Source: Chthoniobacteraceae bacterium
Lineage (GTDB): Bacteria; Verrucomicrobiota; Verrucomicrobiia; Chthoniobacterales; Chthoniobacteraceae
Direction of reading: 5' to 3'
Assembly (NCBI GenBank): GCA_031409655.1
Contig: JANNXQ010000293.1
Location: 1 to 31,250, forward strand
DNA: 31,250 nucleotides
This document shows, piece after piece, positions 2 to 29,071 of this stretch. A program made the translations under genes and the position numbers. The notes below the pieces were generated by a model, which was not told the DNA's origin, did no database searches, and saw only the letters and a program-made list of their open reading frames with translations. Numbering within the stretch: position 1 is the first letter of the stretch; the number at the start of each line of letters is the position of its first letter.

Positions 2-850
2 AAATTCGTGCAGCAGGCGCTCGACACCTACCTGCACAAGAACCGCGAGACCGCCGAAATCATCCGCAAGAAAATCGAGGAGAACGAGCACGAGCGGAAG
101 GAACTCGCCGGCATCCGCAACATCGCCAAGGAACGCGCGAAGAAAGCCTCGCTCCACAACAAGAAGCTGCGCGACTGCCGCCTCCACCTCGGCGACAAAA
201 ACCCGCGCGCCGAGGAGAGCACGCTGTTCATCGTCGAGGGCGACTCCGCCGCCGGCTCACTCACCGCCACACGCGACGTGCAGACGCAGGCCGTCTTCGC
301 GCTGAAAGGCAAACCGCTCAACACCTACGGCCTCACCAAAAAGGTCATCTACGAAAACGAGGAGTTCCACCTTCTCCAGGCCGCCCTCAACATCGAGGAC
401 GGACTCGACGGCCTGCGCTACAACAAGATCGTCATCGCCACCGACGCCGACGTGGACGGCATGCACATCCGCCTGCTGCTGCTCTCGTTCTTCCTGCAGT
501 TCTTCCCCGACGTCATCCGCAACAACCACCTCTTCATCCTGCAGACGCCGCTCTTCCGCGTCCGCAACAAGAAGGTCACGAAGTATTGCTACAGCGAGCA
601 GGAGAAACAGGCCGCCGTCACCGCGCTCGGCGCCAGCCACGAAATCACGCGCTTCAAAGGCCTCGGCGAAATCTCCGCTGGCGAGTTCAAGGACTTCATC
701 GGCGAAAACATCCGCCTCGACCCGATCAACCTCCACCACCTCTACAGCTCCGACGAACTCCTCTCGTTCTTCATGGGAAAGAACACGCAGGAGCGGCAGG
801 AGTTCATCATCAACAACCTCCGCGTGGAGAAGGACCTCATCGAGGTCTGA
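2..850 (+). CDS. parE: Type IIA topoisomerase subunit B, C-terminal part (likely topoisomerase IV ParE); 5'-truncated by the window edge
   Basis: TOPRIM motifs LFIVEGDSA and [12 protein letters not shown], plus [15 protein letters not shown] in place of PLRGKILN, and the [12 protein letters not shown] end, resemble the Bacteroidota/PVC-type ParE rather than canonical GyrB. The frame is open from position 2. Confidence 0.8.
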
Positions 851-924
851 GATGGCCAGGAAACAAACCGCGGCGCTGCCAGCCCGGGAGCACCTCCGTG
901 AGTCCTGCCTCCGCGGCCGTGGCG

Positions 925-999
925 TGGTGCGCGGTACAGGGTTCGAACCTGTGACCCCTACAGTGTCAATGTAGTGCTCTACCACTGAGCTAACCGCGC
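925..999 (-). tRNA. tRNA-Val (anticodon GAC)
   Basis: The reverse complement folds as GCGCGGT-TA-GCTC AGTGGTA GAGC-A-CTACA TT GAC AC TGTAG-GGGTC-ACAGG TTCGAAC CCTGT-ACCGCGC-A-CCA, with an encoded CCA end. Confidence 0.97.
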
Positions 1000-1044
1000 T
1001 TCGCGCTCGGATGCTCCCGTTTCCGGGCGCATCGAGGGGGGCGA

Positions 1045-1073
1045 AAGGTGCCGGGGATTTTTCCTCGCGGCAA
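1045..1073 (-). promoter_or_regulatory. Candidate sigma70 promoter for tRNA-Val
   Basis: Minus strand TTGCCG-N17-CACCTT, followed by a GC-rich discriminator and a GAAA-loop leader hairpin just before the tRNA. Confidence 0.35.
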
Positions 1074-1187
1074 GGCTTTTTGGTTCCGGGTTTGAGCGCA
1101 CCGCGACCGGCCCTTTGCCGCGCCCGCGATTCGGTGCCGGCCGCGGCATTTTCCTCTGCCTGATTGGCCAGACACTCCCGCGCCGCC

Positions 1188-1496
1188 CTACGGATTCGTC
1201 GGCGCGAAGACTTCTTCGCCTTCCTCCACCGCCACCGCGTCGTCCACTTCCTGGTAGGAAAGCGGCGCAAACCGCTCCGCATTGAACCCGCGCTCCACGC
1301 CCACCTTGTTCGTCGGATTCACCACCCCGATCAGATACACCGCCACCTCGCCCTCCGCGCCCGAGAGCGCCTGACCCGGCACCACATCGCGGATCACATA
1401 GATCTGATCCTTCACCGGGAATTGATTGTAGAGCTTCTCAATGCCGAGCGGAAACTTGGCATCGATACAGACGACCTTTTGATTGGGGATAAACAT
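1188..1496 (-). CDS. Small hypothetical protein (102 aa)
   Basis: The ORF from ATG 1496 (MFIPNQKVVCIDAKFP...ERGFNAERFAPL) has a protein-like composition and an acidic tail. The upstream extension to 1562 looks non-coding. Confidence 0.7.
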   Translation of the reverse strand: MFIPNQKVVCIDAKFPLGIEKLYNQFPVKDQIYVIRDVVPGQALSGAEGEVAVYLIGVVNPTNKVGVERGFNAERFAPLSYQEVDDAVAVEEGEEVFAPTNP

Positions 1497-1563
1497 GACG
1501 CGTGGGGATCGAGAATCTGCGCGCAATTCCTCAACTGCCAAGCTCCATTGGTCGTCCGTCAAC

Positions 1564-1733
1564 CTAGCAGCCTTTTGAGGAACACCCCGACGCCCCGGAG
1601 CACAGGCTTCCAGCCTCTGGGTTTCGCCCGCCGCAGACCGATGAATGCTGGGTTTGCAGGCGGGACGCCCCAGGCCCCACCGCCGGGACGGCTGTGCTCC
1701 GCCGCGTCGCCGCGTGTTTCAAAACGCTGCTAG
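1564..1733. mobile_element. MITE-like element, 170 bp, CTAG-bounded
   Basis: Terminal inverted repeats CTAGCAGCCTTTTGAGGAACAC and GTGTTTCAAAACGCTGCTAG. Nested internal IRs CGACGC/GCGTCG and GGAGCACAG/CTGTGCTCC. Confidence 0.65.
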
Positions 1734-1780
1734 AGCGTGTCGTGCTCTCCCGCCGAAGGGCCGGCCCCGGTCTAATCGGA

Positions 1781-3598
<1,818 letters not shown>

Positions 3599-3632
3599 GC
3601 GGAGTGCTGGCGTCCTCCGGTTGCGTTAAAAG

Positions 3633-3730
3633 GAACATCGAACGTCGAACGTCGAACATCGAACATCGAACGATGAATGCGGCCCTCTTCCTTTCGACGT
3701 TCAGTGTTCGACGTTCGATGTTCGATGTTC
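3633..3730. repeat. Heptamer tandem-repeat inverted pair (GAACRTC)n / (GAYGTTC)n between nuoK and nuoL
   Basis: gaacatc gaacgtc gaacgtc gaacatc gaacatc gaacgat ... gacgttc agtgttc gacgttc gatgttc gatgttc. Confidence 0.92.
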
Positions 3731-3737
3731 TGCATTT

Positions 3738-4061
3738 TCAAAATTTCAGCGAGTTGATGTCCTCGACGTGGGTCGTCTGCCGGGCGCGGTAGAGGGCGAC
3801 GATGATGGCCAGACCGACGGCGACCTCCGCGGCGGCGACGGTGATGATGAAAAAGACGAGGACTTGCGCGTTGTAGTCAGGGAGGCCATTTGCGCCGACG
3901 TTGAAGCGGCTAAACGCGACGAGCGAGAGGTTGGCGGCGTTCAGCATCAATTCGAGGCACATGAAGATGATGATGATATTCCGCCGCAGCATCACGCCGG
4001 CGAAGCCAATGGCGAAGAGCAGGCCGGAGACGAGCAGGTAGTCGTTGAGCGTGAGAATCAT
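3738..4061 (-). CDS. nuoK: NADH-quinone oxidoreductase subunit K
   Basis: [20 protein letters not shown] and [12 protein letters not shown] carry the two conserved Glu; three TM helices. Confidence 0.97.
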
Positions 4062-4576
4062 TTCAGTTCGCGCTTGGAGAGGACGACGACGCCAATCGTG
4101 GCCACAAGGATGAGCACGCCGATGACTTGGAAAGGGAGCGTGTGGATCGAGAACAGGGTCTCGCCGACTTGGCGGACGTCATCAAGGCGTTGTCCGGGCA
4201 GACTTTCCAGATTGAGCGGCGGGAAGGGCTTCTGGCCTTCGGGAAAACGGCGCAGGACGAGGGCGATCTGGAGCATGAAGACGACGGACACGAGCCCGCC
4301 GCCTGCCCAGGCGATCACGTTATTCTTCCGCCGCGCTTCGGCTTTGAGATCCAGCAGCATGATGATGAAAAGGAAGAGCACCATGACAGCGCCCGCGTAA
4401 ACGAGAATCTGAATGACCCCGATGAAGTAGGCATCCAGGCCGATGAAGAGCGACGCGAGGCCAAGGAAGGAAACCACGAGGCAAAGGGCGCACGCGACGG
4501 GGTTGCGATTGGCGACGACGGCCACGCCGAAGCCCAGCATCAGGATGGCGAAGAACCAGAAGAGCAGGGGATTCAT
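4058..4576 (-). CDS. nuoJ: NADH-quinone oxidoreductase subunit J
   Basis: NPVACALCL and [20 protein letters not shown] motifs; 4-bp overlap with nuoK. Confidence 0.96.
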
Positions 4577-4582
4577 CGGCAG

Positions 4583-4688
4583 GATTGCAGATCGCAGATT
4601 GCAGATTGCAGTTGTCGCAGCGTTGGACCTCCGGCGAGGGATTCGGATGCACCGTTCAATCCGAAATCCGAATTCTGAAATCTGAAAT
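4583..4688. repeat. Heptamer tandem-repeat inverted pair (GATTGCA)n / (CYGAAAT)n between nuoI and nuoJ
   Basis: gattgca gatcgca gattgca gattgca ... ccgaaat ccgaatt ctgaaat ctgaaat; the best-matching units pair at 6 of 7 positions. Confidence 0.85.
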
Positions 4689-5222
4689 TCACTTCAGAGG
4701 GTTCCATTTGTGGACCAGGCCGTCGAAAACTCCTCCGAGTTCGTAGAGCTTGCGCTTGTCATTCACCATTTCGGCGCGGGTGATGCCGGTAATGGCGTAA
4801 TCCTTCCGCAGGTAAATGGCTTGCTCCGGGCAGACTTCCTCGCACATGCCGCAGTAAATGCAGCGGATCATGTCGATCTTGAATTCCTTCGAACGCTTCT
4901 CGACTTTCGCCCACTTGTCATCGGCGGGGATTTCCTCCGGGGTGATGGTGATGGCTCGCGGCGGGCAGATAAACTCGCAGAGCTGGCAGGCGACGCAGCG
5001 TTCGCGACCATGCCCGTCGGTCACCAGAGTCGGCGCGCCGCGATAGTGCTCCGGCATGTTGGCGTCCCACTTCTCCTCGGGATACTGCATGGCGACTTTC
5101 GTCTTTCCCTGCAGCATGCGTTTGAGGTGATTGAAGGTAATGACCAAGCCAGCGACGATGGAGGGAAGATAGATCTTTTCCTTCCAGGTCAAATTGGGGC
5201 GAGGGACGACGTAGGAGGCCAT
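4689..5222 (-). CDS. nuoI: NADH-quinone oxidoreductase subunit I
   Basis: Two [4Fe-4S] motifs, CVACQLCEFICP and CIYCGMCEEVCP; QYPEEK. Confidence 0.97.
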   Translation of the reverse strand: MASYVVPRPNLTWKEKIYLPSIVAGLVITFNHLKRMLQGKTKVAMQYPEEKWDANMPEHYRGAPTLVTDGHGRERCVACQLCEFICPPRAITITPEEIPADDKWAKVEKRSKEFKIDMIRCIYCGMCEEVCPEQAIYLRKDYAITGITRAEMVNDKRKLYELGGVFDGLVHKWNPLK

Positions 5223-5239
5223 TGGTTATGAGGAAAGGC

Positions 5240-5335
<96 letters not shown>

Positions 5336-5337
<2 letters not shown>

Positions 5338-6496
5338 ATTTCGTGAAGGCGAGGATGCCGGCGGTGATGAAGATGTTCACCAAAGCAATTTCGAAGAGAT
5401 AGAGCCAACCGAGCTTCATAAGTTGATCATAACGGAAGCGCGGGAGCGTCCAGCGGACCCAGATAAAGAACAGAAGAAGCAGGCTCACCTTGCCGAAGAA
5501 GGTCGCAATATTCACCAAGCCCCAGACCCAACCGGGGACACTGTGCAGGATAGCCAAGCCGATGGTATTTGCACCATCGGGGATGAGCGGCAGGTGCCAG
5601 CCGCCAAAGAAGAGGACGACGATGAGGGCGCTGCCGGCAATCATCGCGGTGTATTCCCCGAGGAAGAAGAGGGCGAATTTCATCGACGAATACTCGGTAT
5701 GATAACCGGCGACTAACTCCGTCTCCGACTCCGGAAGATCGAAAGGAAGACGGTTCGTCTCCGCGAACATCGAGATCGTGAAGGTGATGAAGGCGATGAT
5801 GACCGGAATCCAGAGGAGGATGTCGCGTCCGTTAAGACCGCCGTCCGTGAACGGTGCGAGCAACCAGCCGTGATTTACCTGGTAGTTGATGATACTGCTG
5901 AGTTGGGTGGAGCCGCAGATGAGCAGGACGGGCACCGCGCTCAGCCCCATGCAGAGTTCGTAGCTGATCATCTGCGAGGTGCTGCGGATGCCGCCGAGGA
6001 AGGGGTACTTGGAATTTGACGACCAACCGGCGAGGACGATGCCATAGACGCCGACGCTCGAGATCGCGAACATGAAAAGCAGGCCGACATTGATGTCTGC
6101 GACGACCATCGGAACGCCGAGGAAAGTGCTGCCGAAGGGAATCGCCGCGAGGGTGACGATGGCTGGCATCATCGCCAGACACGGGGCGAGCCAGAAGTAG
6201 ATCGTATTCACGTGCCGCGGCACAAAGTCCTCCTTGAGGAGGAACTTCACCGCATCAGCGACTGGCTGACCGAGGCCGCCGAGGAAAGGCGAGAAGTCTT
6301 TCTTAAAGCCAAGAAGCGTGAGCGGGAAGCCGGTGCGGTTCGGACCGATTCGATCCTGGATCAAGGCTGAGACGCGGCGTTCCGCATAGACGGTGTAACT
6401 GACCATCGGCAGCACCACGAGGAAGATCAGGAAGATCGTCTTCCCGAGCGAGGTGCCGATCTGAAACCAGAAGTCGAAGGAGGTCAGGAAATCCAT
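5336..6496 (-). CDS. nuoH: NADH-quinone oxidoreductase subunit H
   Basis: ERRVSALIQDRIGPNR, GWSSNSKYPFLGG, AETNRLPFDLPESETELVAGYHTEYS and PRFRYDQLM motifs. Confidence 0.97.
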
Positions 6497-14129: not shown

Positions 14130-14251
14130 CGCTGGGAGCGCCGCCGTCCCGTGCGGCATCGAAACCACCCGCGCGAAGCGCCGCGATCAGAACAGAAGGG
14201 CGCTGCGCGCATTCGTTCACGATGCCGCCCGCGACGGCGGCGCTCCCAGCG
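14130..14251. repeat. REP/REPIN-like long inverted repeat, family A copy 1 (after glgC)
   Basis: 32-bp arms CGCTGGGAGCGCCGCCGTCCCGTGCGGCATCG and CGATGCCGCCCGCGACGGCGGCGCTCCCAGCG (2 mismatches), starting at the base after the glgC stop. Confidence 0.85.
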
Positions 14252-14296: not shown

Positions 14297-15172
14297 ATGC
14301 GCCGCTTCGTTTTTCTGCTTCTCCTTTTGCTCGGCCCGCTCGCGGCCAGCGCGCAGTTGCCGTTTGAGACCGTCTTCAAAGGGCGCGCCACTTTCGACCG
14401 CCTCGTGAGAGAGGCCGAAGCCGGCCAGTGGAAAGCGCTCCCCATCGGCGAGCGCACCGCCGTGGTCGGCAAGTCTCTCGTGGGCACGCCCTACAAAGGC
14501 TACACCCTCGAGATCGACGACCGCATCGAGGCGCCCTCGGTGAATTTCACGGGCCTTGATTGCTGGACCTTCTTTGAGATCTCGCTCGCCTTTGCCCGCA
14601 TGCTCTACTGCCCGCGGGAGGATTGGACGCCGCAGATGCTGCTCCGCTACATCGAACTCGATCGCTACCGCAATGGCCGGTGCGATGGGAACTACCTGTC
14701 GCGTCTGCACTATCTCGAAGACTGGCTAGCGGACAACGAGCGTCGCCGCCTGGTCCGCGATCTGACGCGCGACCTCGGTGGCATCCGCGGCCCGCACGCC
14801 ACCGGCGAAATGACCCGCGGATGGAAGAACTACCGCTACATGGTGAAAAATCCTGAACTGCGGATTGCCATCGCGGAGATGGAGGCTCGGTTTGCCGAAA
14901 CGCCGCTCTACTACATCCCCAATGCTCGCGTCCCTGGCATCGAAGGCCGGCTCCAGACTGGCGACATCATTGGCATTTGCTCAAAGGACGGCGAGGGCGT
15001 GGGCACTTCGCACGTCGGCATCGCCGTGCGGGATGAGGCGGGCGTGCTCCGTTTTATGCACGCTTCCGCGCCGCGGAACTTTGGCAAAGTGGTGCTCGAC
15101 GCGCGGCTCTCGGAATATCTCGTCCGCTACAAAAGCAATGTGGGGATCATCGTTGCGCGGCCGATTCGCTGA
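14297..15172 (+). CDS. Secreted DUF1460 (NlpC/P60-like, N-acetylmuramoyl-L-alanine amidase-like) protein
   Basis: Signal peptide MRRFVFLLLLLLGPLAASA; LVGTPY..YTLE, GLDCWTF (catalytic Cys), RYRNG...YLSRLHY, SHVGIA, FMHAS. Confidence 0.88.
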   Translation: MRRFVFLLLLLLGPLAASAQLPFETVFKGRATFDRLVREAEAGQWKALPIGERTAVVGKSLVGTPYKGYTLEIDDRIEAPSVNFTGLDCWTFFEISLAFARMLYCPREDWTPQMLLRYIELDRYRNGRCDGNYLSRLHYLEDWLADNERRRLVRDLTRDLGGIRGPHATGEMTRGWKNYRYMVKNPELRIAIAEMEARFAETPLYYIPNARVPGIEGRLQTGDIIGICSKDGEGVGTSHVGIAVRDEAGVLRFMHASAPRNFGKVVLDARLSEYLVRYKSNVGIIVARPIR

Positions 15173-15212
15173 GACTGCGGCGTGGGCGGGTTGCGTCTTG
15201 GAGCGGGAAGAG

Positions 15213-15332
15213 AACGCCAAACTTCAAACGCCAAACACCAAACTCTAAACGGAGCTATCTCGAGTCCGCTCCGACGTCTCGCGATGCCGTCGGCGTTTGA
15301 AGTTTAGAGTTTGGCGTTTGAAGTTTGGCGTT
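15213..15332. repeat. Heptamer tandem-repeat inverted pair (AACNYCA)n / (TGRNGTT)n upstream of smc
   Basis: aacgcca aacttca aacgcca aacacca aactcta ... cggcgtt tgaagtt tagagtt tggcgtt tgaagtt tggcgtt; the outer 21 bp are perfectly complementary. Confidence 0.92.
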
Positions 15333-15432
15333 TTCCCCGCGCCGCAGAGCGCTCGGGTGCCCAATCCGCCGTGGATTTGCCGAAGCACTACATCTTGTGC
15401 CCTAAAATTTACGCAACCACTCCGAATAGTGC

Positions 15433-15461
15433 TTGCCTGCAAATTGCCGCTTGAGGATGCT
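15433..15461 (+). promoter_or_regulatory. Candidate sigma70 promoter for smc
   Basis: TTGCCT-N17-GATGCT, 30 nt upstream of the ATG. Confidence 0.35.
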
Positions 15462-15491
15462 CCCTCCACTCAGCGCCCTTTTTCCCCGTCC

Positions 15492-18400
15492 ATGTATCTC
15501 AAATCCCTCGAAATTTTCGGCTTCAAATCCTTCGCCGCCCGGACCGTCCTGAACTTCCACGACGGCGTGACCTGCGTCGTGGGGCCGAATGGCTGCGGTA
15601 AATCGAACGTCCTCGACGCCATCCGCTGGGTGCTCGGCGAGCAGTCCGCCAAGGCCCTCCGCGGCGGCGAAATGGCGGACGTCATTTTCTCCGGCACCGA
15701 CTCCCGCGCGGCGGTCGGGATGGCCGAGGTCTCGATGACCTTTGACGAATGCGAAGAGGCACTCGGGCTCGACTGGCGGGAGGTCACGATCACGCGCCGC
15801 GTTTTCCGCGACGGCGGCAGCGAGTATCTGCTGAACAAAACGCCCTGCCGGCTCAAGGACATCCACCAGCTCTTCATGGACACGGGCATCGGGCGCTCCG
15901 CCTACTCGATCATGGAGCAGGGGAAGATCGACATGATCCTCTCCTCCCGGCCGGAGGATCGCCGCGCCATCTTCGAAGAAGCCGCCGGCATTACGAAGTA
16001 CAAGTCGCAGAAGAAGGAGGCGCTGCGGAAGCTGGAGGCCACGGAAGCGAATCTTCTGCGCATCACCGACATCATCCGCGAGGTGAAGCGGCAGATCGGC
16101 TCGCTCCAGCGGCAGGCGGGCAAGGCGCGGCGCTATCAGTCCCTGCTCAGCGATCTGAAACTGCTCGAGACCCATAATGCGAAGCGGCAATACGACAGCA
16201 TCGAGGAGCAGCGTTCGGCGACGGCGGATGAGCTGTCTTCGCTCACCTCGCGGCAGGCAGAGCATGAGCAGGAGATCGAGCAGCAGGAAAGTGAAGTGGC
16301 CGTGCAACGCGCCGCACTCGAGGAAATGGAGCAGAAGCTCAACGTCGCCCGGCAGGCGGTGAACGAACTGCGCACGCGCATCTCGAATCACGAAAACCGG
16401 ATCATTTTCAATCAGGAGCGCGTGCTGGAATTCTCCGGCCTCGCCGAGCGCTACAGCGCCGAGGTCGCGGGCTCCGAGGAGCGGCTGCGCGTCGCTGAAA
16501 CGCAGCTTCACGACACCGATGCCGAGCTGGCGCAGATCACCGAGATGCTCGCGGGCGAGCTCCGGCGCATGGAGGAAAAGCAGGCTGCCACGGCTGCCCT
16601 CACCGGTCAGCGCGCGGAGGCGGAGCAGGAAATTTCCACTGCCGCGAATGAAGCGGCGCGTCTCGAGAGCCGCTTGAGCGGACTGCGCGGACAGATCGGT
16701 AGTGTACTCCAGCAGCGCGACGGCGCCGAAGCGCGCCTCGCCGTGCTGAGCAATGAGTGCGACCAGCTCACCTTTGCCTTTGATGCACTCACGCAGCAGC
16801 AGAACACCACGAAGTCCGACCTCGACGCCGCGCTCGCCGACAGCGAGGCGCGCACTTCGGCCCTGACCGCTGCGGAACACACGCTGCGCGAAGAGCAGTC
16901 TGGGCTCGGCGAAGTGGATCGCCAATTGCGCGAGACGCAGAAGGTGATGGCCGAAAAGGAATCGAAGCTCGAAGTGCTGCGCGCGCTGAACGCCGGGGGC
17001 GAAGGTTTCTCCGAAGGCACGCAGGCGGTGCTGCGCGGATTGGACAATCCCGACTTCTTTCGCCCTGCCGTGCTGGGCGCGCTGGCGCAATTCATCGACG
17101 TGGCTCCGGAATACGTCACCGCCGTGGAAGCCGCGCTGGGAGCCAATCTCCAGACCATCGTGATGAAGGATACGATGGTCGCCGAGTCGGCGATCAGGAC
17201 ACTCACTTCCCACAAGATGGGCCGTGCGGCGCTAGCGCTGCGGGATTTCAGATTTCAGATACCGGATTTCAGATTGGGAACCGCGTTACCCGAAGGCGCG
17301 CTTGGCTGGCTGATCGACAAAGTGAACGCCGCAGCGGGTGAAGATGTGGCGTGGTTAATTTCCCACCTGCTCGATCGAGTCGCGCTGGTCGCCGACCTCG
17401 AAACCGCGCTCCGGTTGCGAGCCAGTCTGAAATCTGAAATCGGCGATCTGAAATTTGTCACCCTCACGGGCGAAGTCCTCACCGGTCACGGGGTGCTCCA
17501 TGGCGGCGTCACGGGCGAAGCGACGAACTCGGTGCTCCAGCGGAAGAATCAAATCGCCGCGCTCGAAGCCGAGGAAGCGATCGTTCGGGCCCAGGTCGCG
17601 GAACTCACCAGCCGGCGCGAGATCCTACTGGCGGCGATCGAGACCGGCGTCGCGCGGCTCGAGGAAGCGCGCGAGGAAAAGCAGAATGCCACGCTGCTCG
17701 TCTCCACGCTCCGCGGGCAACTCGCCCTCCTCGAACGCGAAGCGAAGGACACCGAGCGCAAGCAGCAGAGCCTCGATGGTGAACGCGCCAGCAGCGAAGC
17801 CCGGCACGCGGAAGCCGCCGCGCGGTTCGTCCAGCTCGAGATCGAATCCCTCGCGCTCGAAGAACAATCCGTGGGCCTGCGCGAGCGCCGCAGCGAGGCC
17901 CAGAGCCGGCTCGAGATCTTGCGCGCTCAGGAGGCCGAGGTTGCCGGTGAGCTCAATGAACTGAAGATCAAAGTCGCCACCGAACGCCAGCGGCATTCCT
18001 CGCTGCATCATCAGCGCGCGCCGATGGAAGCGCGGCTCGAGGAACTGCGCGACCTCATCGTCCAGCGCCAGGCGGACATCACCACCTACACCCAGCGGGC
18101 CGCATCCACCGCGGCGGAAAGCGCGGAGATCGAAGCCAGTCTCGAAGGCCTGCGCGGTCGGACGGGTGAAGCCGAACTCGCCGTCGCCAGCCTGCTCGAC
18201 GAACGCGCGAACATCGCTGCGGCCGCCGAAGAACTCGGCAACACCTTGCGCATCCTGCGCCACCAACTCAGCGAGTGCCACGACCGCCGGAGCCGGCTCG
18301 AAGTGAAGACCACGCAGCTCGAGATGAAGCTGACTGCGCTGACGGAGCACGTGCAAAAGCGTTACCAACTCGACCTCGCAACTTTCGAACGCGACCTCCA

Positions 18401-19355
18401 CGGCCTGCGCGTCGCCATCCGCGACCTCGCCAAGCGCCAGCGCAACGGCGGCAGCGAAATCTCCGGCGGCGAAGAAGCACTCAACGTTTCACCATCCGCC
18501 GAAGCGCCCGCAGCGAGCGACGAACCGGCGGAAGTCAGCGAGCCGACCAGCTTCACCGAAGACGCCTTCGCCATCGACTGGGAACGCGTGGATGCGCTCG
18601 TCCGCGAACTCGACGGCAAGCTCGATTCCATGGGCCCGGTGAATATGGACGCAATCCAGGAATACGACGAACTCGAGCAGCGCCACACCTTCCTGGAGCA
18701 GCAGAACACCGACCTCATCAACGCGAAGACCGAGTTGATGGACACGATCACGAAGATCAATCAGACGACCAAAGTTCTCTTCGCTGACACCTTCGAAAAG
18801 ATCCGTGCGAACTTCGCCGAGATGTTCACCGAGCTCTTCGGCGGCGGCAAAGCGAACCTTGTCCTGACCGACGAAAGCGATCCGCTAGAGTGCGGCATCG
18901 AAATCATCGCCAAGCCGCCCGGCAAACAACTCCAGTCCATCACCCTGCTCTCGGGCGGCGAAAAGACGATGACCGCCGTCGCGATGCTCTTCTCCATCTA
19001 CATGGTGAAGCCGTCGCCCTTCTGCGTGCTGGATGAAATGGACGCGCCGCTCGACGAATCGAACATCAGCCGCTTCATCAAAATCCTCGATCGGTTCGTG
19101 GCGCAGAGTCAGTTCGTGGTCATCAGCCACAACAAACGCACCATCGCGCGCGCCGATGCGATCTACGGCGTGACCATGGAAGAGCACGGCGTCTCGAAGC
19201 TCGTCGGCGTGAAGTTCAGCAGCCGCGAACCAAACGGGAACGGCGGCGAAGACGTGATGAGTTCGAGCACCGGCGGCCACATCCCGAGCGTCGCCGAGAC
19301 CTTCGGCAAGAGCGGCGACCTGCACAGCGAGAACGTCGCCAACGGCGCCGCGTGA
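15492..19355 (+). CDS. smc: Chromosome segregation protein SMC (1287 aa)
   Basis: MYLKSLEIFGFKSFA, Walker A GPNGCGKSN, long coiled coils, hinge (GEVLTGHGVLHGG), signature LSGGEK, Walker B/D-loop LDEMDAPLDESN. Confidence 0.98.
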   Translation: MYLKSLEIFGFKSFAARTVLNFHDGVTCVVGPNGCGKSNVLDAIRWVLGEQSAKALRGGEMADVIFSGTDSRAAVGMAEVSMTFDECEEALGLDWREVTITRRVFRDGGSEYLLNKTPCRLKDIHQLFMDTGIGRSAYSIMEQGKIDMILSSRPEDRRAIFEEAAGITKYKSQKKEALRKLEATEANLLRITDIIREVKRQIGSLQRQAGKARRYQSLLSDLKLLETHNAKRQYDSIEEQRSATADELSSLTSRQAEHEQEIEQQESEVAVQRAALEEMEQKLNVARQAVNELRTRISNHENRIIFNQERVLEFSGLAERYSAEVAGSEERLRVAETQLHDTDAELAQITEMLAGELRRMEEKQAATAALTGQRAEAEQEISTAANEAARLESRLSGLRGQIGSVLQQRDGAEARLAVLSNECDQLTFAFDALTQQQNTTKSDLDAALADSEARTSALTAAEHTLREEQSGLGEVDRQLRETQKVMAEKESKLEVLRALNAGGEGFSEGTQAVLRGLDNPDFFRPAVLGALAQFIDVAPEYVTAVEAALGANLQTIVMKDTMVAESAIRTLTSHKMGRAALALRDFRFQIPDFRLGTALPEGALGWLIDKVNAAAGEDVAWLISHLLDRVALVADLETALRLRASLKSEIGDLKFVTLTGEVLTGHGVLHGGVTGEATNSVLQRKNQIAALEAEEAIVRAQVAELTSRREILLAAIETGVARLEEAREEKQNATLLVSTLRGQLALLEREAKDTERKQQSLDGERASSEARHAEAAARFVQLEIESLALEEQSVGLRERRSEAQSRLEILRAQEAEVAGELNELKIKVATERQRHSSLHHQRAPMEARLEELRDLIVQRQADITTYTQRAASTAAESAEIEASLEGLRGRTGEAELAVASLLDERANIAAAAEELGNTLRILRHQLSECHDRRSRLEVKTTQLEMKLTALTEHVQKRYQLDLATFERDLHGLRVAIRDLAKRQRNGGSEISGGEEALNVSPSAEAPAASDEPAEVSEPTSFTEDAFAIDWERVDALVRELDGKLDSMGPVNMDAIQEYDELEQRHTFLEQQNTDLINAKTELMDTITKINQTTKVLFADTFEKIRANFAEMFTELFGGGKANLVLTDESDPLECGIEIIAKPPGKQLQSITLLSGGEKTMTAVAMLFSIYMVKPSPFCVLDEMDAPLDESNISRFIKILDRFVAQSQFVVISHNKRTIARADAIYGVTMEEHGVSKLVGVKFSSREPNGNGGEDVMSSSTGGHIPSVAETFGKSGDLHSENVANGAA
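17244..17455. repeat. Heptamer inverted-repeat arms embedded in-frame in the smc hinge
   Basis: gatttca gatttca gataccg gatttca gattgg (17244-17277) and ccagtc tgaaatc tgaaatc ggcgatc tgaaatt (17422-17455). Confidence 0.8.
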
Positions 19356-19364
19356 GAAGATTTT

Positions 19365-19437
19365 GTGAATGGTGATTGGTGATTGGTGAATGGAGTTTGC
19401 GCTCCACCACCATCCACGATTCACCGATCACCATTCA
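19365..19437. repeat. Heptamer tandem-repeat inverted pair (GTGAWTG)n / (CAWTCAC-like)n after smc
   Basis: gtgaatg gtgattg gtgattg gtgaatg ... catccac gattcac cgatcac cattca. Confidence 0.85.
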
Positions 19438-19451
19438 GTCCAGACCAGCGG

Positions 19452-19549
19452 GGCCGCCCAGCCCCGCGCGGGAACGCGAAACGCGGCGGTGCTGCGCCCA
19501 ACCACCGACCGCCGTGTTTCGCACCACTTCCGCGCGGGGCTTGGCGGTC
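19452..19549. repeat. Long GC-rich hairpin
   Basis: Outer arms GGCCGCCCAGCCCCGCGCGGGA / TTCCGCGCGGGGCTTGGCGGTC; inner arms GCGAAACGCGGCGGT / ACCGCCGTGTTTCGC. Confidence 0.75.
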
Positions 19550-19565
19550 ACGGAGATCGAGGCCA

Positions 19566-19689
19566 TGGAGGGACATGCTCCGTCATGTCCTTGATCAAGA
19601 GGACGGAGGCGGCGCGGAGCTGGGGCGCACGGTCGCTCCGCACCGCCTTCGCCCCCGAAGTATGGGACATGACGGAGCCTGTCCCTCCA
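19566..19689. repeat. REP/REPIN-like inverted repeat, family B (3' of the ABC gene)
   Basis: TGGAGGGACATGCTCCGTCATGTCC / GGACATGACGGAGCCTGTCCCTCCA (25 bp, 1 mismatch). Each arm is itself a short hairpin, and there is an inner stem GGAGGCGGCGCGGAGC/GCTCCGCACCGCCTTC. Confidence 0.8.
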
Positions 19690-23660: not shown

Positions 23661-23737
23661 CCCGAACCTGCAGACCTAAACGCCAAACCCGAAGTCCGAA
23701 ACGCCGAACCAGGACACCGAAACGCCGAACCCGATGG
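23661..23737 (+). repeat. Degenerate heptamer tract with a 21-bp (3x7) superperiod
   Basis: cccgaac ctgcaga cctaaac / gccaaac ccgaagt ccgaaac / gccgaac caggaca ccgaaac / gccgaac ccgatgg. Confidence 0.7.
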
Positions 23738-23775: not shown

Positions 23776-23942
23776 AGAGCCCTGTTAAAATATCCGGCCT
23801 CGGTGGATGGCGCGCTCCGCCGCGCCATGAGCACATCCGCGCGCATCGCCACCCTGCGCAGATGGGCCTGCGGCGAGCGTTTGGCATGGCGGGACAGAGC
23901 GCACCATCCACCGAGCGCCGAGAGGTCTTTCCACAGCCTTCT
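23776..23942. mobile_element. Degenerate MITE-like element containing a REP-like hairpin
   Basis: Ends AGAGCCCTGTTAAAA ... TTTCCACAGCCTTCT. Internal IR CTCGGTGGATGGCGCGCTCCGCCGCGCCATG / CATGGCGGGACAGAGCGCACCATCCACCGAG. Confidence 0.5.
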
Positions 23943-25910: not shown

Positions 25911-26864
25911 ATGAGCACGCTCGCTTTTCCCGCTGAATCCCTCACTCGCACGACCGATGCACCCGCTGCCGGCCCCATCCCGCCGGAGGCTGAACGCAAG
26001 GGGCTGACGAAGAAAGAGACCGCCGCCGATCACCCGACGTGGTGCCCTGGTTGTGGTGACTTCTCGGTGCTCGCGCTCTACTACAAGCTCATCGAGAAGC
26101 GGAAAGTCTGGCACGAGAAGATCTGCACCATCGCGGGCATCGGTTGCTCGTCGCGCTTCCCGTATTTTGTGCAGGCGCACGGGGCGCACTTCATCCATGG
26201 GCGAGCCCTGGCCTTTGCCAGTGGCGTGTCGCTCTCGCGTCCGGATCTCCATGTCTTTGTCTTCGGCGGCGATGGCGATGCCTTTTCCATCGGCGGTAAT
26301 CATTTCACCCATACCGCGCGGAAGAACGTGAAGATGACTTATGTGGTCATGGATAACTTTGTCTATGGGCTGACTAAGAAGCAGACCTCACCGACGTCGC
26401 CGATCGGCTTTAAGTCGAAGACCGACGTCTGGGGTTCGCAGGATCGCCCGATCAATCCGCTGAAGCAGGCCATCGCCGCGGGCGCGACCTTTGTGGCTCG
26501 CTCCACGGCCACGAATATCCCGCAACTCCTGAAGATGATGGAAGCCGCGATGGATCACGACGGCTTTAGTTACATCGAGTGCTTGAGCGAGTGCATCGAG
26601 TTTTACCCCGGCGCCTTTGACGGCGCAAACCCGCGCAAGGGTGGCACCTTCCCCGAAGTGCCCGCCGAGCACGACGTGACGGACGAGGTCGCCGCTTACA
26701 AGCTCGCCGGCAATGAGTGGCCGGGGATGTTTGGCATCTTCTATCAAGCCACTCGCCCAACGAAGAACGCGAATGAAGCGAAGATTGTCGCCGACCATCG
26801 CGCGAAGGTCGAAGGGCTCGCCGACTGGCAGATCTTGAAGAAGAATTTCGACCGGATGAAGTAG
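25911..26864 (+). CDS. korB: 2-oxoacid:ferredoxin oxidoreductase subunit beta (TPP-binding)
   Basis: PTWCPGCGDF, GIGCSSR, IHGRA, and TPP motif GDGD...GGNH...DNFVYGLTK. Start at ATG 25911. Confidence 0.9.
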   Translation: MSTLAFPAESLTRTTDAPAAGPIPPEAERKGLTKKETAADHPTWCPGCGDFSVLALYYKLIEKRKVWHEKICTIAGIGCSSRFPYFVQAHGAHFIHGRALAFASGVSLSRPDLHVFVFGGDGDAFSIGGNHFTHTARKNVKMTYVVMDNFVYGLTKKQTSPTSPIGFKSKTDVWGSQDRPINPLKQAIAAGATFVARSTATNIPQLLKMMEAAMDHDGFSYIECLSECIEFYPGAFDGANPRKGGTFPEVPAEHDVTDEVAAYKLAGNEWPGMFGIFYQATRPTKNANEAKIVADHRAKVEGLADWQILKKNFDRMK

Positions 26865-26876
26865 CGGGCGACCGCT

Positions 26877-26998
26877 GGGAGCGCCGCCGTCCTCGTGCGG
26901 CAACATTTGTGCGCGCAGCGCCATCTCAGAGAGCAAAGTTGCGCAGGTGGCGCGCTGCGCGCGAGCAGGACGAGGCCGCACGGGACGGCGGCGCTCCC
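26877..26998. repeat. REP/REPIN-like long inverted repeat, family A copy 2 (after korB)
   Basis: GGGAGCGCCGCCGTCCTCGTGCGGC / GCCGCACGGGACGGCGGCGCTCCC; essentially the same arms as 14130-14251. Confidence 0.85.
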
Positions 26999-27488: not shown

Positions 27489-29071
27489 TGAGCACTCTGC
27501 CCGATTCGCTCTGGCCCTGGCTGCTCCGCACGACGGTCGAAGGCGGGCTGCTCATTGGCCTGGTGCTGGCGCTTTGCTGGGCTGGTGCGGCCTATCTTTC
27601 ACCGCGGTCGCGGGTGGCGCTGTGGGTCGTCGTCGGGTGCAAGCTGCTCGTGCCCGCCGCGCTGCCGTTGGGCGTGGGCTTTGGTACACTTTTCAGCGCG
27701 CGGGTCGAGGTCGCGGGGGGGCCGCTGGTGGCGGTGGGGAGCCTCGGCTCCGAGATTTTCGCTGGGGGCGAGGGCGCCCCAACTCCTTGGAGCAACTCCA
27801 CAACCCCTCGATTTGAGAGCGTGCTCGCGGGCCTGTGGGCTGTGGGAGCGGTGGGCGTGATCGTGGCTCTGCTGATCCGCGAGGCGCGGTTCCGGCGCTC
27901 CCTGCGTGGCCTGCGAGTGGGCGAAGATCGCGAGTTGCTCGCGCTCGTGCGCGAGTGCTCTGTGCTGTGTGGGGTGAAGAGCGCGCCGCGAGTGCTCTTG
28001 CTGCCGGAGCGTTCCGGCCCGGCGCTGGCCGGCCTCTTTTCGCCGGTGCTCCTGCTGCCCGCAGATTGGCGGGAACGCTTCGATCGCGAGGCGCTGCGCC
28101 AGGTGATCTTCCACGAACTCGAGCACCTGCGCAGCCGAGACCTCGTCTGGAACTGGCTCGCCGCGCTCGTCGCCGCGGTGCATTGGTTTAATCCGCTGGT
28201 CTGGCTCGCCGCGTCGCGCTTTCAAGCAGACCGCGAACTCCGCTGCGACGCGCGCGCGCTCCGCCGCCTGGCCCCAGGGGAGCGGATCGCCTATGGCCGC
28301 ACTTTGCTCCGGATCTCCGAAGACTTTCTCGCACCGCCCGCCAGCGCAGGGCTGGCGCCGTGCGTGCGCAAAAACCCCGCCCTGCATCAACGCCTCACCA
28401 TGATCACCCGTCCACCCACCTCCACGCCCGCGCGGCAAGTCCTCTCCGCCGGAGCGCTCGGCCTGCTCGTCTGTCTCTCCTTTGGCTCCGCGCGCGCCGA
28501 GGAGGAGCCGGGAAAAGACCGCACCCGTGAGGGCCAGCGCAGCCCCGAAGCGCAGGGAGCAAAGCCTGCGGTGCGGGAAGGCGAACGGCCGCGCGAAGGC
28601 GGAGAAAAAATGCGCGAGGGTGATGGGCAAAAGCCGCGGGCGCGGGAAGGGGACGGTGATCGTCCAAAGACCGGGGAACGCGACGGCGAACGGCCAAAGA
28701 GTGGCGTGCGTGATGGCGAACGCCCGCGCAGCGGCGAACGGGATGGCGAGCGGCCGAAGAGTGGTCCGCGCGAAGGAGAAGGGGGACGCGCGCGCGAGGG
28801 CGAAAAGATGCGCGAGGGCGAGGGGACTGGTGGGCAGCCCATCGAGATCCGCGTGCTCGGAAACGGGGCCGAAGTGCGGATCGCAGAGCGCACCGTGCCG
28901 ATGAACGAACTGCGCGGATTCCTCTCCGGCTATCTGGTGGACAAGGCGGGGCGTCCGGTGGTGATCGATGCGGATGCGACCACGCCCTTTGCCGCCGTAG
29001 GCAAGGTGCTCGACGCTGCGCGGGACAGCGGTGCGAAGAACGCCCAGATCCGCCCCGCAGCCGCGCGGTGA
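27485..29071 (+). CDS. BlaR1-like M56 metallopeptidase sensor with a charged repeat linker and C-terminal ExbD/TolR-like domain
   Basis: GPALAGLFSPVLLLP, zinc motif HELEH, HWFNPLVW, RELRCD, YGRTLL. The C-terminal VVIDADATTPFAAVGKVLDAARDSG resembles the ExbD periplasmic domain. Overlaps the repressor stop codon. Confidence 0.88.
   Translation: MMSTLPDSLWPWLLRTTVEGGLLIGLVLALCWAGAAYLSPRSRVALWVVVGCKLLVPAALPLGVGFGTLFSARVEVAGGPLVAVGSLGSEIFAGGEGAPTPWSNSTTPRFESVLAGLWAVGAVGVIVALLIREARFRRSLRGLRVGEDRELLALVRECSVLCGVKSAPRVLLLPERSGPALAGLFSPVLLLPADWRERFDREALRQVIFHELEHLRSRDLVWNWLAALVAAVHWFNPLVWLAASRFQADRELRCDARALRRLAPGERIAYGRTLLRISEDFLAPPASAGLAPCVRKNPALHQRLTMITRPPTSTPARQVLSAGALGLLVCLSFGSARAEEEPGKDRTREGQRSPEAQGAKPAVREGERPREGGEKMREGDGQKPRAREGDGDRPKTGERDGERPKSGVRDGERPRSGERDGERPKSGPREGEGGRAREGEKMREGEGTGGQPIEIRVLGNGAEVRIAERTVPMNELRGFLSGYLVDKAGRPVVIDADATTPFAAVGKVLDAARDSGAKNAQIRPAAAR
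28652..28771 (+). repeat. Four 30-bp coding tandem repeats (DGERPKSGxR)
   Basis: DGDRPKTGER DGERPKSGVR DGERPRSGER DGERPKSGPR; synonymous positions have diverged. Confidence 0.85.

Follow-up and report, generated by a model that had tools for sequence, protein, structure and literature searches.

The window, i.e., the whole stretch of 31,250 nt that was analysed, carries an intact smc gene with two heptamer arrays in inverted orientation in the coding sequence of its hinge. Further inverted heptamer pairs are situated on both sides of smc and in the nuo operon.

3633..3730, no strand assigned: intergenic heptamer pair nuoK/nuoL, GAACATC family
4578..4689, no strand assigned: intergenic heptamer pair nuoI/nuoJ, one arm identical to the smc unit
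5239..5337, no strand assigned: intergenic heptamer pair nuoH/nuoI, GAACATC family
15213..15333, no strand assigned: intergenic heptamer pair upstream of smc, AACGCCA/GTTTGGA units
15492..19355, + strand: smc, 1287 aa, intact (Pfam SMC_N; SMC_hinge 525-643)
17244..17277, + strand: arm 1, ~4.6 GATTTCA units, in frame, hinge loop 1, residues ~585-596
17278..17421, + strand: enclosed hinge coding DNA, 144 nt, homologous, with a history discordant with its flanks and lowered GC3
17422..17455, + strand: arm 2, in frame, with reverse-complement units at a helix end and in loop 2, residues ~644-655
19365..19437, no strand assigned: heptamer pair with a GTGAATG unit directly past the smc stop codon (assignment of the second arm by eye, end approximate)

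Period-7 arrays were detected by TRF at 17244-17275 (4.6 copies of GATTTCA) and 17426-17454 (4.1 copies of TCTGAAA), as described in the first-pass annotation, and constitute an inverted pair of 33 nt with 79% complementarity (26/33) and a spacing of 144 nt. The peptides previously assigned to both arms are present in the intact ORF, and the match of the unit to one arm of the nuoI/nuoJ element was found again. Between the arms, 48 hinge codons are located, and the reading frame is intact with this segment retained. None of the smc units GATTTCA, AATTGCC, GATTGCG, and GAACTCG contains a GGG tract.

The smc arm pair is genuine and represents neither chance nor an assembly artefact. Contigs of run X3, which belongs to the same study as the possible source runs, span each arm without any difference, and 17228-17395 is covered by a contig of a separate study that deviates at 16 of 168 nt. 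Although 668 period-7 arrays in the genome leave room for a chance pairing of two simple repeats, all seven arm-2 arrays found in related hinges co-occur with arm 1, the register is fixed, and independent contigs span both arms, so that chance or artefact has a practically negligible probability. In runs X3-X6, summed contig depth over 17244-17280 amounts to 790-5586 compared to ~10 nearby, with many unrelated spacers, which shows how abundant this heptamer family is in the metagenomes concerned.

An AlphaFold model with a mean pLDDT of 73.6 shows arm 1 as coil, whereas arm 2 covers a helix end together with the loop that follows; the model of an armless hinge was uninformative (pLDDT 45). Hinge loop 1 comprises 17 aa compared to 14-17 aa in eight outgroup hinges, and loop 2 comprises 18 aa compared to 14 aa. 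Both arms are thus placed in loops and add little length, in good agreement with the earlier expectation: the net gain is ~4-5 residues, and the repeat-derived part consists of the two 33-nt arms only. The enclosed residues align to the solved SMC hinges 5h69 and 1gxl.

The genome of the window (G000; 6.85 Mb, 63% GC, 95% complete) contains 668 period-7 arrays, whereas 75-127 arrays were counted for periods 5, 8, 10, 11, and 13. Within 1500 nt, 206 period-7 pairs are inverted and 30 are direct, and arm length peaks at 28-42 nt, i.e., four to six units. According to script-made gene calls, on which this placement relies, the 194 pairs within 450 nt comprise 143 intergenic pairs, 32 pairs with one arm in a gene, six pairs around a gene, and 13 pairs inside a gene. 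Among these 13, one is due to an erroneous call of a four-helix-bundle gene and the spacer measures 12-54 nt in 11, which leaves smc as the sole pair enclosing long homologous coding DNA. A more sensitive scan for arm pairs in the 5472 script-called genes yielded 14 matches (eight loci) compared to three and one in two synonymous-codon shuffles and is therefore above chance; a clear second smc-like case was not among them. A gene at G000:C239:16373-18386, which by eye resembles an acyltransferase-heptosyltransferase fusion, carries two complete in-frame heptamer hairpins ~430 nt apart.

Considering the family as a whole, the 157 short spacers in this genome are nearly all unrelated, with only seven similar pairs. 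Most elements (131 of 178) are located between co-oriented genes, and nine of 178 lie between convergent genes compared to 327 of 2397 gaps, i.e., without the enrichment expected of an intrinsic terminator or REP-like hairpin. Neither arm is of consistently better quality: a comparison of the 5' with the 3' arms (58 vs. 71 of 144, p 0.08) did not clearly favour one side, and sorting by GC skew revealed no bias either (42 vs. 57).

The heptamer pairs of the nuo operon are insertions: G001 and G002 lack them at the nuoH/nuoI and nuoI/nuoJ sites, whereas G000, G012, and G085 carry pairs with differing units and spacers there. At the nuoK/nuoL site, where G000 has a short element, G002 (L167:2340-2835) contains an insert of 496 nt that is bounded by inverted arms and holds a frameshifted ORF, GxxExxY-like by eye. 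The same 39-nt REP-like hairpin occurs within a heptamer arm at two places, the nuoK/nuoL element of L168 and smc arm 2 of L004 (G012), in the latter case in frame and adding 13 aa.

Arms of the same family also frame genes. In G000, inverted heptamer arrays flank both sides of seven out of ten TIGR02436 four-helix-bundle genes (background 0.0002), and inspection by eye revealed a complex arrangement, degenerate arms, and hexamer arms for the remaining three, and 9-10-mer arms for both GxxExxY genes. The seven genomes with paired smc arms contain 10, 5, 8, 1, 10, 12, and 8 TIGR02436 genes compared to a median of two in the other 144 (nominal p 4e-4, with kin being non-independent). The genome with a single gene of this type in spite of its arms, G121, is 71% complete. 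By association, the four-helix-bundle and GxxExxY proteins are candidate enzymes for the arm system. The smc arrays are best explained as arms of this Chthoniobacteraceae family of heptamer inverted-repeat elements, whose arms elsewhere surround either four-helix-bundle/GxxExxY genes or short spacers that are unique, and here frame a piece of the host smc.

Searches of 41 and 151 genomes matched smc in 37 and 135, respectively. Of 136 aligned loci two partial ones were dropped, resulting in 134 hinges (126 from the family, eight from the order); six genomes of the order and seven of the family, the latter matched only in fragments, are not part of this set. Both arms were observed in seven hinges (two each in genera g1 and g10, one each in g41, g5, and g13), arm 1 only in two (L078 and L149), arm 2 only in none, and no arms in 125. 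All nine arm-1 arrays begin at one and the same codon and agree in phase, register, and length, and the outer arm ends pair without shift in all seven two-armed hinges. The match between the arm-1 and arm-2 units of the same hinge scored 39 compared to a permutation mean of 30.4, a value reached by eight of 5040 permutations. With respect to the check proposed in the first-pass annotation, both arms are gained, lost, and switched in unit jointly among these hinges.

The smc unit is commonest in its own genome in case of G000 (26 matches vs. 0-12), G085 (47 vs. 0-25), and G007 (55 vs. 0-14). This tracking is weak in G002, where three of four matches lie within smc and one outside, and fails in G015 (2 vs. 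7 in G007). The two arms are linked, share a single register, switch their unit together, and tend to carry the common unit of their genome. Some rewriting process holds the smc arms periodic and complementary, and to this extent the earlier idea of in-place rewriting or conversion holds. Two separate origins of the arms had been assumed as well, but the shared register of the nine arm-1 arrays fits a single origin at least equally well. Relatives with conserved peptides encoded by codons that break the 7-nt periodicity were not encountered. Decayed 7-periodicity in 40 other armless hinges did not exceed background, and the longer loop 2 of g8, g9, g18, and some g44 members can consequently not be called arm remnants. 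A metagenome scan yielded ten weak loci, none of them a close smc relative.

A conserved armless block is common to 77 hinges, and in the flank tree five arm-bearing loci nest inside the clade defined by this block on short branches. The interior of our locus (L001) is 41% identical to that of the armless congener L003 at a flank identity of 87%, whereas armless pairs at 85-90% flank identity have a mean interior identity of 90% and a lowest value of 73%. Among 48 nearest-neighbour pairs, ten of which contain an arm-bearer, interior identities of 35-51% at 82-87% flank identity were observed for eight of these ten; no such sharp drop was found in the 38 armless pairs, with a lowest value of 70%. 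Other windows in SMC residues 300-937 showed zero to two such drops, and identity is restored within ~20 residues beyond the arms. Within SMC residues 300-937, the sharp break between close relatives coincides with the arm-to-arm block and occurs only where an arm-bearer is involved.

A protein search with the block retrieved six further proteins, P0002-P0007, which were compared as protein sequences and represent a selected sample due to their retrieval by likeness to our block; P0007 was assigned to the arm type by its interior only. P0002-P0005 have a block of the L001 type, recognisable by a Trp and additional residues, and their closest flank relatives are armless. The Trp, an LDR/LER motif, and the extra residues are common to five proteins dispersed across the flank tree (L001, P0002, P0003, P0004, and P0005), whose interiors are 57-76% identical among themselves. 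A clade of these five is rejected by the flank tree (AU p 7e-7), while neither the g1 clade of our own genus (p 0.004) nor P0002+L064 (p 0.04) is accepted by the interior tree. As kin are not independent, the p values overstate the significance, and the interior tree comprises 41 columns only, with two of 27 branches starred and the arm-bearers on long branches.

At the nucleotide level, synonymous identity between arm-bearers and their armless sisters is 28.7 compared to 37.3 expected of 60. In armless cross-genus pairs it is 0.508 compared to 0.505 expected, so that a recent sweep of the armless block leaves no synonymous signal, in a test limited by saturation, and was rejected. Amino-acid-corrected interior GC3 falls below expectation in eight of nine arm-bearers (-0.09), with lowered values also in arm-bearers outside the armless clade; the deviation is +0.035 in the 77 armless hinges and -0.028 in others, and adjacent windows are near zero.

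Taken together, the drop in interior identity, the tree conflict, and the lowered GC3 indicate that the arm-to-arm block was replaced or rewritten as a unit. The earlier statement that a block event can be excluded is thereby not supported, since the block is abruptly unlike that of armless sisters and clusters with blocks from arm-bearers outside its genus. For the same reasons, the description of the enclosed DNA as genuine hinge sequence holds with respect to its homology, but it is not simply the untouched sequence of this lineage.

The search for a close donor of the enclosed block gave no result; in case of L002 and L069, no interior match exceeded ~60%, and the interior of L004 had close matches only among relatives of its own genus. 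Divergent blocks without detectable arms occur in 11 hinges, four of g41 (L137, L138, L140, and L147) and seven of g44, and nest among armless relatives. L003 resembles an armless import, judged from loop lengths of the g41 type only, which hints that the armless block moves as well.

The first-pass annotation had also considered selection for a long-range stem in the smc mRNA. According to such an explanation, an RNase III site or a binding site for a pentameric four-helix-bundle protein would tune expression, and the differences in the block would be a side effect. The smc arms do pair in the MFE and centroid RNA folds (z -2.65; 2/200 shuffles), the stem heptamer repeats of the Coxiella 23S intervening sequence (IVS) are described as cut by RNase III in the consulted part of PMC4990558, and the preferred arm length of four to six units and the location between co-oriented genes would suit an RNA element. 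On the sense strand of 144 elements, however, G-U mismatches (142) are not in excess of A-C mismatches (155), arms are missing from 125 of 134 hinges, no Rfam match was obtained for 15100-19600 at E up to 1, and a stem by itself leaves the replaced interior unexplained. The claim of selection for an mRNA stem is hence unsupported and such a stem improbable; in spite of the stable RNA fold, the lack of a G-U excess favours a process at the DNA level.

DGR-like retrohoming, in which an arm-framed RNA is reverse-transcribed with the help of an Avd-like four-helix-bundle protein and rewritten with errors, would account for the restriction of change to the framed block, and PF05635 resembles Avd according to the relevant part of PMC10053308. 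However, PF00078 has no match in G000 (95% complete), and a template copy was not observed, with a single smc match per genome. Changes by base in the block and the flanks are 0.50/0.08 for A, 0.40/0.07 for C, 0.24/0.05 for G, and 0.07/0.01 for T, i.e., change in the enclosed block is raised ~5-7-fold for all four bases and is not adenine-specific. This route is very improbable and largely refuted.

The reading we prefer, with a probability of about one half, is that a DNA-level heptamer-arm element took up a segment of a core gene as cargo and that the block was transferred. The smc arms would pair as DNA in a hairpin or cruciform, whereby the framed segment would be cut or exposed. Its repair would then proceed by conversion over a short tract, with a different smc allele with or without arms as the source, or by error-prone rewriting. 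Such repair would move the block between genera and raise local change, and the arms may be kept periodic and matched by slippage, by template switching, or by other copies acting as conversion donors. Due to the location of both arms in loops, the SMC protein presumably tolerates a change of the block. Against this reading, gene conversion between genera at ~75-80% identity is normally rare.

In-place writing with convergence would dispense with block transfer: single arms would arise independently in tolerant loops, template switching would fix pairs, and the interior would then change rapidly by local hypermutation and protein compensation. The existence of single arms (arm 1 alone in L078 and L149, lone arrays in DUF1549-type paralogs of G000) is consistent with such a course, as are the nearly all unrelated spacers, the lowered GC3 of arm-bearers outside the armless clade, and the missing close donor. 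It is difficult to reconcile with the recurrence of the Trp, the LDR/LER motif, and the extra residues in five dispersed proteins and with one register and one length in all arm-1 arrays; the lowered synonymous identity to sisters also argues against it, though hypermutation would give the same result. We regard it as possible, on the unlikely side. In a further reading, the arms might be the ends of an undescribed homing-type mobile system without a gene of its own at the site, on which four-helix-bundle/GxxExxY proteins act in trans and whose cargo, a segment of an essential gene, is replaced across genera (~75-80% identity, 220-nt tracts); this reading appears doubtful.

Although both heptamer repeats and four-helix-bundle (IVP) proteins occur widely, neither has a settled function. 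In this respect the smc locus offers a phenotype that is sharp and accessible to testing: a core gene contains 220 nt with a history of their own, and the breaks fall exactly at the arms. Should exchange be driven by the arms, essential genes would have a new way of becoming mosaic at domain scale across genera, the function of the IVP family would become testable, and single-gene trees of such bacteria would contain hidden mosaics. In case of local hypermutation instead, the arms would mark mutation hot spots in core genes.

Several known systems share features with the smc element. Rehm et al. 2015 (PMC4692102) describe GGGAATC heptamer arrays of Xanthomonas with a preference for about four units, many of which (70 and 75 cases) form convergent inverted pairs, mostly between aligned genes, as observed here. 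In contrast to those pairs, the units of the present family are not of the G-quadruplex type and vary between genomes, and the passages of PMC4692102 considered contain no in-frame pair that encloses homologous host coding DNA and acts as a block. The 23S rRNA IVS with its S23p/IVP four-helix-bundle ORF is bounded by terminal inverted repeats of tandem heptamers and horizontally acquired, as stated in the corresponding part of Warrier et al. 2016 (PMC4990558), and likewise the arm family of smc frames seven out of ten TIGR02436 genes in G000. However, the smc pair frames hinge sequence without a four-helix-bundle ORF, and while the IVS is an insertion excised from rRNA by RNase III (PMC4990558, same part), the smc segment is translated and replaces homologous sequence.

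As for RPE elements, which are in-frame translated palindromes in tolerant protein sites and whose orthologs may hold different element types at one site (PMC3767692, in the part available), the likeness ends at the body. An RPE is a block insertion of 100-150 bp with a family consensus (PMC3767692, same part), whereas the smc interior is host hinge, a conserved family body is absent, and spacers are nearly all unique genome-wide. DGRs also rewrite one gene segment locally, with an Avd protein akin to the four-helix-bundle family (part of PMC10053308), but they differ by an RT, a template repeat, and adenine-specific change, none of which applies here. The TAACTGA heptamers of the Beggiatoaceae (short arrays; PMC4679880) and the tandem repeats of Borgs (PMC9879509) are fast-evolving tandem arrays near or inside genes, but direct and, in the parts of these reports considered, almost never present as inverted pairs. 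PF05635 is present in cas loci as well (PMC3936711, section considered). The smc element acts like an IVS-type or RPE-type repeat, yet misses defining features of each. An account of heptamer arms around homologous coding DNA moving as a block was not found in the literature covered, outside of which most subscription journals as well as supplements fall.

The smc design is not unique, as two DUF1549/PSCyt genes of G085 (L171:703-986 and L172:752-1041) share it with in-frame arms around ~220 nt of a conserved domain. A further G085 gene (L176) has the second arm only, and in the DUF1549-type paralogs of G000 the lone arrays are located in the first loop. Block exchange between the two G085 paralogs was considered, their interior being 68% identical compared to 54% and 62% in the flanks, but is not shown, as interior values of up to 74% also occur among paralog pairs in G000.

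In G007 (L175 and L177), heptamer matches are strongly strand-biased, with 46 reverse and nine forward matches for one unit, and runs of unpaired arrays in the same direction lie between small genes that by eye are toxin-antitoxin-like. Elsewhere in the window, a period-21 array of related heptamers is located at 23662-23734, for which no partner was detected, and non-periodic long intergenic hairpins occur at 1564-1733, 14130-14251, 19566-19689, and 23799-23915, with a motif of 14134-14161 repeated near 26863-26998. At 28644-28764, a 30-nt tandem repeat encodes a tract rich in G, E, R, and P in a protein that by eye is BlaR1-like and follows a BlaI-like repressor.
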